A program made the translations under genes and the position numbers. Positions 7,155-64,000 of a stretch of DNA of 64,000 nt are shown one piece after another. Source of the DNA: Sphingobacteriia bacterium. GTDB lineage: Bacteria; Bacteroidota; Bacteroidia; UBA7662. The notes beneath the pieces were generated by a model, which was not told the origin of the DNA, did no database searches, and saw nothing but the letters and a program-made list of their open reading frames with translations. How positions within the stretch are numbered: position 1 is the stretch's first letter; each line of letters starts with the position of its first letter. The DNA lies in contig RFMW01000091.1 of assembly GCA_009927485.1 (NCBI GenBank), forward strand, positions 12,319 to 76,318. Direction: 5' to 3'.

Positions 7155-8234
7155 ATGATCGAAACCTTATCGACCACAACCCCCGTAGGCACCATGGCCA
7201 CCATGCAAGAAATGGGCCATGAACAATTGGTTTATTGCCACGATGAGGCGTCCGGATTGAAAGCCATGATCGGCATTCATTCGACCGTCTTGGGTCCAGC
7301 CCTGGGGGGAACCCGTATGTGGAACTACAAAAACGAAGACGAGGCTGTTCGTGATGTGTTACGTCTTTCACAAGGCATGACCTACAAGGCTGCCGTCGCA
7401 GGACTCAACCTCGGCGGGGGCAAAGCCGTCATCATTGGTAATTCTCGGACGGACAAATCCGAAGCAATGTTCAAAGCCTACGGACGTTTTGTGAATTCAC
7501 TTTCCGGCAAATACATCACCGCCGAAGATGTAGGAACCTCCAAAACCGATATGGCTTGGATCGCTTCGGAGACAGCCCACGTCAGCGGTTTACCTGAAAG
7601 CATGGGAGGTTCAGGGGACCCATCACCCGTGACGGCCTACGGCGTATATATGGGCATGAAAGCCGGTGCCCAAGCGGTATTTGGTACCAACGATCTTGCA
7701 GGTCGCCGTGTTTTGGTTCAAGGAATCGGTAACGTAGGCAGCTATTTAATCGATCATTTGATTTCGGAAGGCGCAAAGGTTTATATCTCCGACATCTACG
7801 ATCCAGCTATCGAATCCTTAATGAAGAAGTATCAAGGCCTTAGCGTGGTCAATCCTTCCTTGGTGGCTGAGGCCGATGTGGATATTTATGCCCCATGCGC
7901 TTTGGGCGGAACCTTGAACAGCGAATCCATCCCCTTGTTGCGCTGCAGCCTTGTTGCCGGTGGAGCCAACAACCAATTGGCTGAAGAATCGGATATGCAA
8001 AGGCTTATGGACCGCAGTATTGCCTATGCCCCCGATTTTGTAATCAATGCCGGAGGTCTCATCAATGTCTATGCCGAAATCAAAGGTTTCAACCGGGATT
8101 GGGCCATGGAGCAAACTCGTAACATTTATCAACAAACCCTCGCGATTTTTGAACAGGCCAGCAACGATCAATTAAGCACCAACAAGGCCGCCATCCAATT
8201 GGCCCAAAAACGCTTGTCCTCTGCTTTATCATGA
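7155..8234 (+). CDS. Glu/Leu/Phe/Val dehydrogenase (leucine dehydrogenase-like)
   Basis: GHEQLVYCHD...GLKAMIGIHSTVLGPALGGTRMW and catalytic Lys region GLNLGGGKAVIIGN. Rossmann motif GIGNVGSY. Start is uncertain (7155 or 7197). Confidence 0.85.
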   Translation: MIETLSTTTPVGTMATMQEMGHEQLVYCHDEASGLKAMIGIHSTVLGPALGGTRMWNYKNEDEAVRDVLRLSQGMTYKAAVAGLNLGGGKAVIIGNSRTDKSEAMFKAYGRFVNSLSGKYITAEDVGTSKTDMAWIASETAHVSGLPESMGGSGDPSPVTAYGVYMGMKAGAQAVFGTNDLAGRRVLVQGIGNVGSYLIDHLISEGAKVYISDIYDPAIESLMKKYQGLSVVNPSLVAEADVDIYAPCALGGTLNSESIPLLRCSLVAGGANNQLAEESDMQRLMDRSIAYAPDFVINAGGLINVYAEIKGFNRDWAMEQTRNIYQQTLAIFEQASNDQLSTNKAAIQLAQKRLSSALS

Positions 8235-10064: not shown

Positions 10065-10657
10065 ACAAGAGGGTTGGCCTGACCGGGAATATGGGGTCGG
10101 GCAAAACGTTGGTTGCGGGAATTTTCACCCATTGTGGTATCCCTGTTTACAACGCTGATGAACGGGCTCGAGCCCTCATGAGCGAGCCTGGCTCACTCCA
10201 AAACGCAATCGTCAACCTCCTGGGATCCGGAGCCTACCGGGACGACGGAACCCTTGATCGAACTTACATTGCCAAGCGTGTTTTTCAGGACACGGCCCTG
10301 CTGACTGCCTTGAACAAATTGGTTCATCCGGCCGTCGCTGCCGATTCTGAGCAATGGGATGCCTTGCAAAGTGCACCTTATACCTTGCATGAAGCCGCAC
10401 TTTTGGTGCAAAGTGGTTCCTCCATGCAGATGCGTTGCAATATCCTGGTCACTGCCCCGGAACTGTTGCGCATGGACCGGGTCCGCCAACGCAACGGGTG
10501 GTCGGATTCGGAAATCTTGGATCGACTCAAGCATCAATGGAGCGAAGAACGACTAAGGCCCCATTGCCAATACAGCATCATCAACGACGGCACCCACTCC
10601 TTAATCGAGCAGGTAATCGGTATTCATCGCTTGATCCTTCTGGATTTGGGGAAATAG
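10061..10657 (+). CDS. coaE: dephospho-CoA kinase
   Basis: P-loop GLTGNMGSGKT at the N-terminus. 198 aa. 4-bp overlap with yajC. Confidence 0.85.
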   Translation: MNKRVGLTGNMGSGKTLVAGIFTHCGIPVYNADERARALMSEPGSLQNAIVNLLGSGAYRDDGTLDRTYIAKRVFQDTALLTALNKLVHPAVAADSEQWDALQSAPYTLHEAALLVQSGSSMQMRCNILVTAPELLRMDRVRQRNGWSDSEILDRLKHQWSEERLRPHCQYSIINDGTHSLIEQVIGIHRLILLDLGK

Positions 10658-55789: not shown

Positions 55790-56818
55790 ATGCGCAATCC
55801 CCATCTTGATGCCGAGGGTTTGGAATCCGTTCAGCCTGAACAGGAACAGGAAATTCAGCTGAGGCCCAAGACCTTTGGGGATTTTGCCGGGCAAGACAAG
55901 GTCATGGACAACCTCAAAGTCTTTGTGGCCGCGGCCTTGGGTCGGGGCGAGGCCTTGGACCATGTCTTGTTGCACGGACCTCCCGGATTGGGGAAAACCA
56001 CCTTGGCCCACCTCATTGCCAACGAGATGAAGGCGCAGATCAGGATCACCAGTGGTCCTGTTCTGGAAAAGCCAGGGGACTTGGCGGGCCTGTTAACCGG
56101 ACTGCAGGCAGGCGATGTGCTTTTCATCGACGAAATACACCGCCTCAGCCCGGTGGTGGAGGAATACCTTTATTCGGCCATGGAAGATTTCCGGATTGAT
56201 ATCATGATCGATAGCGGCCCCAATGCCCGTTCGGTGCAAATCGGTCTGCAACCCTTCACCTTGGTTGGAGCCACCACAAGGTCCGGTTTATTGACGGCAC
56301 CGCTTAGGGCACGGTTCGGCATCAATGCCCGATTGGAATACTACGATGCGGACTTGCTCGCCAAAATCATCGCACGTTCCTCGGCCATCCTGGGTGTCCC
56401 CATCGAAGGTCCAGGCGCCGAAGAACTCGCCCGGCGCAGCCGTGGCACCCCGCGAATCGCCAATGCATTGTTACGAAGAACCAGGGATTTTGCCCAAATC
56501 AAGGGACAAGGAATTATTAGCCAAGATATTGCCTCCATGGCCTTGGACGCATTGCAAGTGGATCATCACGGGTTGGACGAAATGGATAACCGTATTTTGA
56601 TGACCATTCACGAAAAATTCTCCGGGGGACCGGTCGGCCTCAACACCATCGCCACTGCAGTGAGTGAAGAAGCCGGGACCATTGAAGAAGTGTACGAACC
56701 TTTTTTGATTCAAGAAGGATACCTCAAAAGAACACCGCGGGGCCGAGAGCTCACCGAACGGGCCTACCGACACCTCGGCAAAATACCCCCTGCCCGGACG
56801 CCAAATTTGTTTGGCTAA
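55790..56818 (+). CDS. ruvB: Holliday junction branch migration helicase RuvB
   Basis: Walker [15 protein letters not shown]. Walker [10 protein letters not shown]. Sensor and winged-helix C-terminus. Start at the internal ATG (MRNPH) gives 342 aa. Confidence 0.9.
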
Positions 56819-57549
56819 TTACGGGAATCCACCCCAGAGGATGCATAATAATCATCCACGCTGAAAAACCCTTTGCGTTGCTTCAGCCATTCGGCGGCAA
56901 GCACGGCCCCTACCCCGAAGGCGCGACGATGATGCGCCTGGTGTTCCAAAGAAATTTGCTCAAAAGCGCTTGAGGCCCGCAGCGTATGCGTTCCTACCTC
57001 CCCTTCCTTGCGATGGCTGATGACCGGCAAAATGTGGGGGTTGTCGGACAATTCCGGGGACCATTGCTGATAGCGGGTCGATAGGGACAGCAAATCCTGC
57101 GCTGTCTGGAGCGCAGTGCCGCTAGGGGAGTCCAATTTCTGCAAGTGATGAGCCTCGTGAAGTTCCAAATTAAATTCCGGTAACGCATCGAGCATGGCAG
57201 CAAGGCTACGACCCAACCTTCGGAAAATCTGAACACCGGGCGCAAAATTGGATGCCCATAACACGCTGCCCTCCAGTCGATCGCAAGTTTCTTGGATCTG
57301 AGGCAAACGATCGTACCAGCCCGTAGTCCCGATCACAACCGGCAAACCCTGTTCCAAGGCTGCAAGAACATGGGCATGAACCAGGTCTGGACGACTCATT
57401 TCAAAGACCATGTCCACTTCGTGCTTGGCCAAGGGCTTTACCCAGGGATGGGCCGAATCATGAACCGCCACCAGGCGATGCCCCCGCTCTTGGGCAATTT
57501 CCATCGTGACCTGGGCCAATTTCCCGTTGCCCAAAAAGACCAGGTTCAT
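56815..57549 (-). CDS. dapB: 4-hydroxy-tetrahydrodipicolinate reductase
   Basis: [13 protein letters not shown](P)-binding start, VIGTTGW, and [16 protein letters not shown] catalytic motif. The reading frame extends upstream to 57642 but the internal start fits the family length. Confidence 0.85.
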
Positions 57550-57566
57550 GCTTCCAACAATTTGAA

Positions 57567-61595: not shown

Positions 61596-62951
61596 GTGAT
61601 TCCTACCAACCGCACCCTGCTGAGGGACCATTGGGTTCTGGCTTGGCCCATCATCTTGGGGCAAATGAGCCATATGGCCCAGTCGGTGGTGGATTCGGTG
61701 ATGGTTGGTCGCCTGGGGGCCGTGCCCCTGGCCGGGGTATCGGTGGCTGTAGGGGTCTTTAACGTGCTTTTGGTTTTTGGCATCGGGTTATCCTTGGCGG
61801 TCACCACCCTAAGCGCCCATGCCCGCGGTCAAGGTGATCCCGAAGAAGGCGGCAGGGTTTTGTTGCATGGTTTTTGGGTTTGCCTTTTGGCCGGACTCTT
61901 GATGCAAGGTGTTTTGATGCTTGGCATGCCTTGGTTATCGCTGTTGAACCAAAAACCGGAGGTCGAAACGCAGATGCGGATTTACTTGCAGGCCTTGGGG
62001 TATTCCTTTTTGCCGATCATGCTTTTTCAAGCTTTTCGGCAGTTCATCGAAGGGTTGGAATGGATGAAGCCGGCGCTCATGATCGCCCTGTTGAGCATCC
62101 CCTTGAATATTGGATTGAACAGCCTATTGATTTTTGGTCGCTGGGGATTGCCGGCCCTGGGGGTTGAAGGGGCGGCCTGGGCCACGGTGATCGCCCGCTG
62201 GATGATGGCCCTGGCGATGATGGCTTATGTGCTCAATCAAAAGGAGTTAAGGATCTATTGGACGCATCGTTTCCTCCTTCGTTACGTTCGAATTCAACCG
62301 TTGTTACGTTTGATGATTTTGGGTTTGAGTTCGGCCTTTCAATTCATCTTCGAAACGTCGGCCTTTGCCGGAGCAGCGGTGGTCATTGGGTGGCTGGGGG
62401 CCGAGGCCCTGGCGGCGCATCAGGTGGCCATCAACATTGCTTCCATGAGTTTTATGGTGGCCGTTGGTATTTCCTCATCGGCATCCATTCGCATTGGGTA
62501 CGCCAGGGGCTTGGGCGATTTGGGGCTGGCCCGTCGCATTGGTTGGGTCGCCATGGGAATGACCCTGTCCTTGATGAGCCTCTGTGCCTTGGCTTTTGTG
62601 GTTTGGAACCGGGAACTTCCTGCCTTCTACGTCAACGACCCCGTCGTCCTTCGCTCGGCATCCATCCTGCTTTTGATCGCAGCGGCCTTTCAGTTGGTGG
62701 ACGGCCTGCAGGCCCTCGGGGTGGGACTCCTCCGGGGCATGGAGGATAAACGCGTCCCCACCCTCCTGGTCTTGGTGGCGTATTGGGTTGTGGCCCTTCC
62801 CCTGGGGACCTACCTGGTCCTTCACAGTTCCTATGGCTTGTATGGAATGTGGATGGCCTTGGCCGGTGGACTGCTCCTGTCGGCCATCTTCCTGATCCTG
62901 CGCTTTCTGCACCTGACCGCTGGCGCGATGTCCAAGGGGCCTCGACCTTAG
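61596..62951 (+). CDS. MATE-family efflux transporter
   Basis: 12-TM protein with NorM-like N-terminal (LAWPIILGQMSHMAQSVVDSVMVGRLG) and repeated MATE halves. 451 aa. Confidence 0.85.
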   Translation: MIPTNRTLLRDHWVLAWPIILGQMSHMAQSVVDSVMVGRLGAVPLAGVSVAVGVFNVLLVFGIGLSLAVTTLSAHARGQGDPEEGGRVLLHGFWVCLLAGLLMQGVLMLGMPWLSLLNQKPEVETQMRIYLQALGYSFLPIMLFQAFRQFIEGLEWMKPALMIALLSIPLNIGLNSLLIFGRWGLPALGVEGAAWATVIARWMMALAMMAYVLNQKELRIYWTHRFLLRYVRIQPLLRLMILGLSSAFQFIFETSAFAGAAVVIGWLGAEALAAHQVAINIASMSFMVAVGISSSASIRIGYARGLGDLGLARRIGWVAMGMTLSLMSLCALAFVVWNRELPAFYVNDPVVLRSASILLLIAAAFQLVDGLQALGVGLLRGMEDKRVPTLLVLVAYWVVALPLGTYLVLHSSYGLYGMWMALAGGLLLSAIFLILRFLHLTAGAMSKGPRP

Positions 62952-63005
62952 ACCCTGACCGACCCCCTGGAGGGTTTATAGACTCCAAAACCGCTTTTGG
63001 GTGTA

Positions 63006-63090
63006 CATTTGCGGCGGAGAGATGGCAGAGTGGTCGATTGCGGCGGTCTTGAAAACCGTTGACTGTAACAGGTCCGGGGGTTCGAATCCC
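63006..63090 (+). tRNA. tRNA-Ser (anticodon UGA), class II with long variable arm
   Basis: Acceptor GGAGAGA/TCTCTCC. Anticodon loop CT-TGA-AA. Long variable arm. T-loop GGTTCGAATCC. Discriminator G. CCA not encoded. Confidence 0.85.
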
Positions 63091-63104
63091 TCTCTCTCCG
63101 CATC

Positions 63105-63130
63105 CCAAGCCCATGCCCCCCACGGGGGCA
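63105..63130 (+). terminator. rho-independent terminator after tRNA-Ser
   Basis: GCCCCC-CAC-GGGGGC hairpin followed by TTTTTTATTT. Confidence 0.6.
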
Positions 63131-63302
63131 TTTTTTATTTGAGAATGAGCCAGGCTTGCCTGAGCGAATTCAATAAATAAAAAATGACAGGAACGAAGTT
63201 CCGGCATGGGCTGTATATGCTAGGACCTCCCCCTGGGATGTCCGAGCGCAGTGAGGACCATCCCTCTCTCTCCGCTGAGTACAGTTCGCAACTGTTCGAA
63301 AA

Positions 63303-63334
63303 GTGTGTAAGTCGTTGATTTACACACTTTTTTT
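63303..63334 (+). terminator. hairpin plus T-run (terminator-like)
   Basis: GTGTGTAA / TTACACAC 8-bp stem with 9-nt loop followed by T7. Confidence 0.4.
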
Positions 63335-63520
63335 GTTCTTTACTTTCCGAAAATGTTCGCGTTTGTACGTCGATTAGGTTTCCTTCTGGTGACCCCTTTT
63401 CAAAAATCTAAAAGGGGTACTTACAGATGCCAAAGAATATCAACACCAAAACACGCCATTTTTCCAGTTCAAACTTAGGAAAACCATAAATCCGTTATGA
63501 TGGTTTCGTTACAAACCAAA

Positions 63521-63913
63521 TTACTTAATTTGCATATCTTTTATCAAGGGCAATATCTCCAAGGACTTTTTCAAAGGAAAGAATGGAAGTGTCGTCATAA
63601 GTTGACTCACTTCGCTTTCTGTTCGATCTTTAAAAATCAATACTGCACCATTTTTGGTAGGCCTTAAATACAACTGTTCCAAAAATCCCTCCTGTTTCCA
63701 TTGCGCTACCACTTCGCGCTCATGATTAAGAATCTCTTGAAAGTTATCGGGTATGTTGTCCATGTCCAAGGTTAGAACAACTAAAATTCTGCTTTCGTTT
63801 TTTTGTACTTCGGATTGTTCCATATTATTTCTATTTGACTGGGAGTAGATATTGTATGAAGAGAACAATATCACCATTGGTAATATTATCAACACCCTGA
63901 TTGTGCTATTCAT
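63521..63913 (-). CDS. secreted muconolactone-isomerase-like / Dabb-fold family protein (low-GC gene)
   Basis: Signal peptide. Pattern ...GFLEQLYLRPTKNGAVLIF...SEVSQLMTTLPFFP resembles the MLI/YciI-like fold. Sits in an AT-rich block after tRNA-Ser. Confidence 0.35.
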   Translation of the reverse strand: MNSTIRVLIILPMVILFSSYNIYSQSNRNNMEQSEVQKNESRILVVLTLDMDNIPDNFQEILNHEREVVAQWKQEGFLEQLYLRPTKNGAVLIFKDRTESEVSQLMTTLPFFPLKKSLEILPLIKDMQIK

Positions 63914-64000
63914 TATTTATTGTTTAACAGTCTATTGCGTAATTCTGGAAAGCGAAAGATAGCGATGACAAAAAGCATAACTTGTATTATACAAGGCGCT

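Follow-up and report, generated by a model that had tools for sequence, protein, structure and literature searches.

Genomic islands inserted by tyrosine integrases at the 3' ends of tRNA genes are a familiar class of element, and a sublocation rule reportedly set out by Williams in Nucleic Acids Res in 2002 is said to place their crossover in the T-loop/acceptor region of the tRNA. Among the Bacteroidota, NBU2, a small Bacteroides mobilizable transposon, reportedly integrates beside tRNA-Ser, an observation attributed to Wang et al. in J Bacteriol in 2000 (182:3559). In this study, we analyzed a 64-kb stretch of DNA from an uncultured Sphingobacteriia bacterium (contig RFMW01000091.1; the whole stretch is hereafter called the window), in which an exact 16-nt direct repeat at a tRNA-Ser(UGA) gene borders AT-rich DNA. 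Very probably, a tRNA-Ser-targeting island has left a small remnant here that lacks an integrase and has the repeat at its left edge, and this remnant carries a gene cassette from a low-GC relative. The island feature is ordinary and of a known kind, and this locus is an additional case of it.

The locus resembles other tRNA 3'-end islands in its repeat, which extends from the T-loop to the discriminator base, in its element-supplied terminator, its atypical GC content, and its presence/absence polymorphism, and the integrase gene of its intact relatives lies approximately 270 bp from the core. It differs from them in that the integrase, the right end, and the right attachment site (attR) are missing and only 2.6 kb remain. 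Moreover, rather than marking the far end of the island, the repeat is separated from the tRNA by a native-looking 158-bp spacer on its upstream side. By analogy, the closest named counterparts appear to be the small Bacteroides mobilizable transposons beside tRNA-Ser, such as NBU2, which share the phylum, the tRNA-Ser 3'-end target, the small size (~10 kb), and an integrase gene beside the att site. Unlike those elements, the relatives of the island carry defense-type cargo, and Pfam revealed no relaxase or Mob domain, the mark of an NBU2-like element or integrative and mobilizable element (IME), in the one complete related element (L055) or in the window block. The locus also bears a resemblance to the small tRNA-Ser-inserting Bacteroides elements or IMEs mentioned in PMC13597742. 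Cis-mobilizable elements (CIMEs), which are decayed elements that keep their att sites, and their tandem accretion have been described previously (Pavlovic et al. 2004; Bellanger et al. 2011; reviewed in PMC5704250). Arrays of core, segment, core, and element at one target gene are common to those systems and the present locus, and true tandems are found in two of the related loci (L055 and L027). However, the 158-bp segment is far smaller than the described CIMEs and looks like a native spacer, and the 2.6-kb block has no attR and is therefore not mobilizable in cis.

The tRNA-Ser(UGA) gene is the single tRNA gene that ARAGORN finds in the window, and Rfam (RF00005) places it at 63016–63100 with a score of 57.9 bits. 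The 16-mer ATCCCTCTCTCTCCGC has exactly two copies in the 64 kb, one inside the tRNA (DR1) and one downstream (DR2), and still only two when up to 2 mismatches are allowed; the chance expectation is 0.01, and two copies were obtained in 0 of 100 shuffles. The copies are 174 bp apart from start to start, with 158 bp between them. The 16-mer spans the last 2 nt of the T-loop, the 3' strand of the acceptor stem, the discriminator, and 1 further nt, and both of its borders are sharp, no similarity continuing on either side. Because of this T-loop-to-discriminator extent and the dissimilar flanks, the repeat fits site-specific recombination rather than segmental duplication. Of the marks of a tRNA-targeting island, a direct repeat of the tRNA 3' end at the island border is thus present as an exact 16-mer. 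A truncated tRNA copy at DR2 was also considered and rejected, as DR2 with its upstream sequence is tRNA-like only over the 16 nt.

GC content in 200-bp windows is 0.52–0.63 across 62400–63299 and 0.33–0.39 from 63300 to 64000, and it is uniform at 0.47–0.54 over the remaining 63 kb of the window. Hairpins followed by T-runs, as in intrinsic terminators, are located at 63113–63131 (+), 63298–63332 (+), and 63202–63190 (−). An earlier note on this DNA, made from the window alone, had reported an exact recurrence of the tRNA end at 63260–63275, an abrupt GC drop after the second copy, and hairpin terminators within the AT-rich block. These observations are confirmed, the drop being from ~0.55 to ~0.35 in the sliding-window analysis at ~63300 and the terminator of the block being the one at 63298–63332. 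The first copy of the repeat is located at 63086–63101, not at 63076–63091 as the note had placed it, and the gap is accordingly 158 bp and not 168 bp.

The same junctions are present in six independent assemblies with ~99.8% identity to the window. Metagenome contigs of the same organism were found by exact-protein look-ups, and three of them from different samples (L006, L007, and L008) span the MATE efflux gene upstream of the tRNA, the tRNA, both repeats, and the cassette, collinear with the window at 99.8–99.85% identity. Positions above 64000 are extension coordinates, in which the window is continued by contig L009. Against this composite, L006 is collinear at 99.85% over 14.4 kb and reaches past the block through the next two genes, the flavoprotein gene among them, so the junctions are real and the extension is valid.

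The MATE gene served as an anchor for locating the equivalent locus in related genomes. A scan with its protein, taking one genome per species, retrieved metagenome-assembled genomes (MAGs) of uncultured Bacteroidota at 87–96% identity; the metagenome contigs and MAG loci compared with the window are designated by L numbers. The interval between tRNA-Ser and the flavoprotein gene occurs in four states: the window type, an empty site, a Fic-bearing type (L017), and an integrase-bearing type (L018). At the empty site (L019, L016, and L024, with MATE 90–96% identical), the tRNA is followed by ~230–340 bp of non-coding repeats and then by the flavoprotein gene; only one full 16-mer is present, and the low-GC block is absent. 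The comparison of related genomes proposed in the earlier note thus yields an empty site, and the AT-rich segment is not present in all relatives. In the more distant L017, the tRNA and the unit precede another exact 16-mer, behind which come a further, diverged unit and a different low-GC insert of 1.6 kb (GC 0.35–0.40), which encodes a 520-aa Fic protein matching the PADLOC candidate PDC-S24 (E = 1e-180); L014 starts like L017. In L018, the N-terminus of an integrase (Arm-DNA-bind_5, Phage_int_SAM_5) follows directly, 270 bp after the tRNA. We regard the stretch from tRNA-Ser(UGA) to the HI0933-like flavoprotein gene as a hotspot for integration in this freshwater Bacteroidota lineage. As a separate observation, the tRNA-Ser of L017 (~10090–10110) lacks its 5' acceptor strand, with a lone C in place of ~11 nt (TGCGGCGGAGA), and no tRNA is called there by ARAGORN; either the tRNA gene at this occupied hotspot has become a pseudogene or the assembly is at fault.

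The interpretation of DR2 as an island junction comes from the 144 bp behind it. The tRNA end of L018 aligns with DR2, not with DR1, and the next ~140 bp are homologous to the window, including the hairpin at 63298–63332; this spacer also contains an inverted repeat (63392–63400 with 63410–63418). In blastn searches, window 63260–63419 matched L069 at 94%, L036, L038, and L041 at 92%, L029, L030, L031, L033, L034, and L059 at 88–90%, and L018 at 75%. These matches consist of a tRNA end and the spacer leading to an integrase gene, and in all of them the homology ends at 63419. The matching loci do not share the upstream flank of the window. The spacer belongs to the element and moves together with the integrase gene rather than with the flanking host DNA, because L069, the closest match, has a different upstream host gene, which encodes an ABC transporter in place of MATE. 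An element-specific end next to the core, common to mobile relatives elsewhere, is thus also found at this locus.

A metagenome scan with the L018 integrase fragment (270 aa) as the query yielded 57 loci, in at least 19 of which a tRNA-Ser gene ends ~270–285 bp upstream of an integrase gene whose product is 61–100% identical to the fragment. The targeted tRNA-Ser is mostly of the UGA type, with CGA and GGA isoacceptors as well. Family integrases with 76–96% identity over the 270-aa query occur beside tRNA-Ser(CGA) and tRNA-Ser(GGA) in L028, L032, and L033; it appears that the integrase family accepts several serine isoacceptors, the 3' ends of which differ at a few bases. The full-length integrases of L055 and L069 contain PF17293, PF13102, and PF00589 (Arm-DNA-bind_5, SAM_5, and Phage_integrase), and NCBIfam gave only generic tyrosine-recombinase similarity. 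Three loci link the integrase to the window architecture. L068 has the upstream flank of the window, the tRNA, the 158-bp unit, DR2 with 2 substitutions, the spacer, and the start of an integrase gene running off the contig. L027 and L070 are window-like from the 158-bp unit onward and then continue into an integrase gene, which is full-length in L027 (412 aa). The tRNA of L055 precedes a complete element of 10.25 kb, behind which come ATCCGCTCTCTCCGC and a spacer 95% identical to window 63263–63320, an arrangement that reads as a tandem array. The cargo of the intact relatives is defense-like (AbiD, a GmrSD/NsnA-type nuclease, and a DpdF-like helicase). The spacer homology, the integrase genes of L068, L027, and L070, and the empty site in relatives together support the proposal of the earlier note that the repeat is an att-type edge of horizontally acquired DNA.

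The low-GC block measures approximately 2.6 kb (63276 to ~65900), with a GC content of 0.39 versus 0.51–0.53 in the host; GC returns to ~0.55 about 2.6 kb after DR2. Atypical composition and an empty site in close relatives, two further marks of an island, are therefore both found. The 84 bp immediately behind the spacer, near which an integrase gene ought to begin, gave no blastn match, and tblastn detected no integrase remnant in them. The cassette that follows (63504–65826) has a minus-strand operon for a muconolactone-isomerase (MIase)-like protein, DoxX_2, and an Oxidored_FMN reductase of the old yellow enzyme (OYE) type, with hxlR divergent on the plus strand, as assigned by Pfam. The earlier note had described the first of these genes as a low-GC gene for a secreted MLI/Dabb-like protein: the gene and its hydrophobic N-terminus are confirmed, and the MIase match of the 130-aa product is borderline (PF02426, 26.8 bits against a cutoff of 26.7). 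The end of the DoxX_2 gene and the start of the 130-aa gene share the bases ATGA, and the OYE-type alkene reductase is annotated as N-ethylmaleimide reductase in relatives.

Over 2324 bp, the cassette is 90% identical at the DNA level to L082/L083, contigs of ~36% GC throughout in which it is not in a tRNA context. On account of this identity, the cassette is judged by its sequence to come from a Bacteroidota lineage with ~36% GC. Many OYE protein homologs (80–96% identity) are found in freshwater Bacteroidota, many of which have the hxlR-OYE module. In its gene order, with hxlR divergent from the Oxidored_FMN gene and the small DoxX and MIase-like genes following, the window copy is like other HxlR-regulated OYE (alkene/N-ethylmaleimide reductase) cassettes. 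It is unlike them in its location within an island remnant and in a GC content 12–15 points under that of the host. The function is a prediction; the cassette most likely serves redox or electrophile detoxification.

Homology to the empty-site genomes restarts at ~65903, within the final codons of the flavoprotein gene. The C-terminus of the flavoprotein reads ...GEGSTGEPAG in island-bearing contigs versus ...GEGSNG in empty-site contigs such as L019 (extension ~65893–65905; L009 ~7183–7195), so the right island junction rewrote the last codons of a core gene. Judged from this alignment, the right border is an illegitimate, deletion-type junction inside these codons and not an att site. The features of the region are listed in Table 1.

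Table 1. Features at the tRNA-Ser(UGA) locus, in window coordinates
Feature	Position	Strand	Basis
MATE efflux gene, left-flank core gene	61596–62951	+	ORF (open reading frame); PF01554 MatE
tRNA-Ser(UGA), apparently intact	63016–63101	+	ARAGORN; Rfam RF00005
DR1, 16-nt core ATCCCTCTCTCTCCGC inside the tRNA	63086–63101	+	exact repeat search
Inter-repeat unit, 158 bp	63102–63259		terminators, relatives
Conserved 47-nt motif GCTAGGACCTCCC(n)GGGATGTCCGAGCGCAGYGAGGACMATCCCT	63219–63265	+	nine copies aligned
DR2, second exact 16-nt core, putative attL-type junction	63260–63275	+	exact repeat search; relatives
Probable island left-end remnant: spacer between att core and integrase gene in intact elements	63276–63419	+	blastn
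AT-rich junction, 84 bp, no homolog found	63420–63503		blastn, tblastn
Start of low-GC cassette, which runs on to ~65826	63504–64000	-	90% nt identity to L082/L083; Pfam
Gene for 130-aa protein with signal-like N-terminus and MIase-like (dimeric alpha-beta barrel) domain	63521–63913	-	ORF; PF02426
DoxX_2 gene, 3' end, runs off the window	63913–64000	-	L009 ORF 8801–9175; PF13564

We propose the following history for the locus. Islands at this hotspot would encode a Bacteroidetes-type tyrosine integrase and recombine within the 3' end of the tRNA-Ser gene. DR2 would be the attL-type junction of one such island, and the first 144 bp (63276–63419), the terminator-supplying spacer that normally leads into the integrase gene, would be its surviving part. 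The integrase gene, any right end, and attR were presumably lost, and ~2.4 kb of AT-rich DNA with the four-gene HxlR-regulated cassette now occupies their place. The right border would be a deletion junction in the last codons of the flavoprotein gene, which would make the block a fixed, immobile islet. The repeat itself, the likeness of the spacer to integrase-linked spacers, the varying occupancy of the site, and the foreign source of the cassette are established by the data, whereas cassette acquisition as island cargo, the order of these events, and the role of the cassette are the more conditional parts of the proposal; for the cargo this is because no intact related island that was recovered carries hxlR/OYE.

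Several observations weigh against this history. Among the genes called in the window and the 9.8 kb downstream, there is no integrase gene and no mobility gene; tblastn with two integrases against the window and ~9 kb of extension gave nothing (E > 0.5); and the 9.8 kb downstream contain no third 16-mer at up to 3 mismatches. The hxlR/OYE cassette has no nucleotide match in the intact related islands recovered, and elsewhere it occupies ordinary chromosomal contexts. Because the contigs end, the elements of the L068/L027 type could not be followed to their far ends, and the sole complete element and the sole attR-type junction observed are those of L055 and L027, respectively. Searches for far-end repeats of intact islands (exact matches of at least 11 nt, or 12-mers with up to 1 mismatch, within 10 kb) found none except the L055 junction, which was detected by blastn; the intact elements are probably longer than the fetched flank, or their contigs end. 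A third 16-mer at a far border was not found in any locus searched. Finally, the 158-bp segment looks, from its sequence, like a native spacer of the locus rather than element-derived DNA, which means that DR2 cannot be read simply as the displaced end of the tRNA.

The block is best described as an island remnant, because two defining features of an intact integrative element, an integrase inside it and an att repeat at its far border, are both absent. Without integrase and attR, excision of the block is not expected. The earlier note had placed the bulk of the island beyond 64000 and had named an integrase gene and a third 16-mer downstream as the check, with their absence counting against an island. 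The foreign block ends ~1.9 kb past the window at a total of ~2.6 kb, and neither feature occurs in 9.8 kb; by that check the window genome fails, and the att interpretation survives only because of the comparison with other genomes. As for the suggested tandem-att arrangement or decayed element, the element has decayed, whereas the 158 bp between the copies are native-like and cannot clearly be called the relic of one. In its kind, a decayed att-type edge, the interpretation of the note is correct; in its scale it is wrong, since there is neither a large island nor an integrase.

How a full 16-mer came to stand behind a native spacer is best discussed from the 158-bp unit itself. It contains the tRNA terminator (63113–63131, +) and a terminator-like hairpin (63190–63202, −), together with nested inverted repeats (63108–17 with 63203–12; 63129–40 with 63175–86). 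In L024 and L016, the minus-strand hairpin GGAACTTCGTTCC directly follows the stop codon of the flavoprotein gene, whose native 3' flank it is; the island has thus come to lie between this gene and the terminator that it originally had. The right part of the unit is common to the empty-site relatives. In L027, the right end of another element is followed by CTCTCTCCGC and then by ATCCCAAGCCCATGCC..., the same unit as in the window, so that the unit sequence ATCCCAAGC... comes after an attR-type core. The 158-bp unit has an exact core at both ends, whereas the 2.6-kb block has only the left core. The 47-nt motif overlaps DR2, its last 6 nt (ATCCCT) being the first 6 nt of the repeat, and across nine aligned copies it is far better conserved than the surrounding intergenic DNA. 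Other copies are located at 834–999 (two) in L019, ~5674–5725 in L016, and ~461–511 in L024. The motif can fold as a hairpin (GGAC..CCC..GGG..GTCC), matches no Rfam family, and in the empty-site genomes is followed by unrelated sequence and not by CTCTCTCCGC; it may serve for protein binding or as a secondary att site. With one copy in 64 kb, it was rejected as a dispersed repeat of the repetitive extragenic palindromic (REP) or miniature inverted-repeat transposable element (MITE) type. A permissive Rfam search of 62900–64000 for structured RNAs gave the tRNA alone above the gathering score; BTnc005 and sX4 were far below threshold and were rejected.

The stretch from tRNA to motif was also compared (window 63102–63215 versus L019 721–830), and it exists as two alleles that are unrelated in sequence but alike in layout, each having two terminator cassettes in inverted orientation. 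The window-type allele reads AGCCCATGCC-hairpin-CATTTTTTATTT ... AAATAAAAAATG-hairpin-GGCATGGGCT, and the L019-type allele reads GCGAATCG-hairpin-GGTTTGGTGG ... CCACCAACC-hairpin-CGATTCGC. L017 has two diverged copies, with compensatory changes in the outer stem.

One route to DR2, which we consider possible but not the probable one, is integration at a secondary site: an element would have entered a pseudo-attB in the native spacer, at the motif ending ...GAGGACMATCCCT, and the CTCTCTCCGC part of DR2 would come from the copy of the tRNA end in the attP of the element. The empty-site relatives have the motif up to ATCCCT followed by unrelated TGTCA... or CGACA..., every contig in which an element or remnant follows the motif contains the 16-mer in full or, in L068, with 2 mismatches, and the sequence left of DR2 is native while that to the right is element-borne. 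However, the attR-type junctions of L027 and L055 share only CTCTCTCCGC with the tRNA, which suggests that strand exchange occurs within those 10 nt and not in ATCCCT and so, on two examples, weighs slightly against this route. In addition, L017 has a full DR2 with no island spacer after it, and the predicted reciprocal junction (the right end of the element, ATCCCT, and TGTCA..., with a predicted attR of ...ATCCCT+TGTCAATCC) was not observed.

A further alternative leaves DR2 untouched and concerns the cassette, which may never have been island cargo; a later illegitimate or homologous recombination of foreign DNA would have overwritten the integrase gene and the rest of an older island. We regard this as conceivable though not likely. 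No intact island relative has the cassette; the hxlR-OYE module was found in an ordinary chromosomal neighborhood, on contigs of 33–37% GC and away from tRNA-Ser, in 3 of 3 contexts fetched, so the cassette is chromosomal elsewhere and not beside a tRNA; and both of its borders (63420–63503 and ~65827–65900) are short and have no recognizable homology. On the other hand, two independent events would be needed at the same 2.6-kb spot, the cargo of the island family has a GC content of 0.30–0.40, a range that includes the 0.39 of the cassette, and only ~10 kb each of a few dozen islands were sampled.

Also possible, though less likely than not, is the origin of DR2 by tandem accretion, in which an earlier tRNA-integrated element decayed to 158 bp, as an extreme CIME with attL and attR, and a second island entered its attR, now DR2. 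Integration, decay to a CIME, and renewed integration at attR are the documented norm for tandem arrays (PMC5704250), L055 has tandem elements of the same integrase family, and L017, the most divergent relative, also has the order core, unit, core, followed by a second, diverged unit. Against this, the 158 bp show no resemblance to the ends of any known element; the right part of the unit, including the flavoprotein terminator, is shared with empty-site genomes; and L027 has the unit behind another element's attR core, just where a native flank would be expected.

Two other explanations are hardly credible. The AT-rich segment could be an ancestral low-GC region, with the 16-mer a chance match or local duplication unrelated to mobile DNA, in keeping with the lack of an integrase and a third repeat in the window genome, but the block is missing from close relatives and 90% DNA-identical to a ~36% GC genome, the repeat is far beyond chance, and the DR2 flank is homologous to integrase-linked spacers in other host contexts. 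Likewise, a mis-assembly, with a chimera at a tRNA common to two genomes, would account for the many assemblies that break at tRNA-Ser and for the difference of L009–L011 from the window just upstream of the tRNA, but the three samples of L006, L007, and L008 agree with the window and extension throughout.

A few observations concern the surroundings of the island remnant. Downstream of the block lie the HI0933-like flavoprotein gene, which is convergent with the tRNA, and genes for a nitroreductase, copper oxidases, a BBP2 protein, and a TonB-dependent receptor. L010/L011 lack ~1.86 kb relative to L009 at extension ~67910–69774, with two copper-oxidase-domain genes; this is a second strain-variable segment, a few kb past the island. 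At the position of dapB (window ~56800–57550), L001 has a 66-aa ORF and dapB is uncalled between ruvB and the DUF5683 gene, while L002, L006, and other contigs have dapB; its absence from L001 may be a strain difference or a frameshift. Independent assemblies stop in or beside tRNA-Ser on both the host and the island sides (L001–L005, L012, L013, L015, and many of L025–L071), a pattern that fits the coexistence of several alleles of the site in the lakes sampled.

The result explains a sharp composition break and a short repeat by a textbook process, tRNA-targeted integration followed by decay, and leaves current understanding unchallenged. In practice, metagenome assemblies can be seen to break at this tRNA-Ser, and annotation should not label the block a mobile element because everything needed for movement has been lost. 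It is conceivable, though quite unlikely, that the 47-nt motif, with or without the full 16-mer, is a maintained secondary landing pad downstream of tRNA-Ser. If so, islands would be captured, stacked, and exchanged there without disturbing the tRNA gene, and the landing pad would explain the cycling of the site among defense cargo (AbiD, GmrSD-like, DpdF-like, and Fic/PDC-S24), metabolic cargo, and an empty state across freshwater Bacteroidota populations. The comparison maps a strain-variable hotspot in uncultured freshwater Bacteroidota, which holds phage-defense candidates, a redox/electrophile stress cassette, or nothing.

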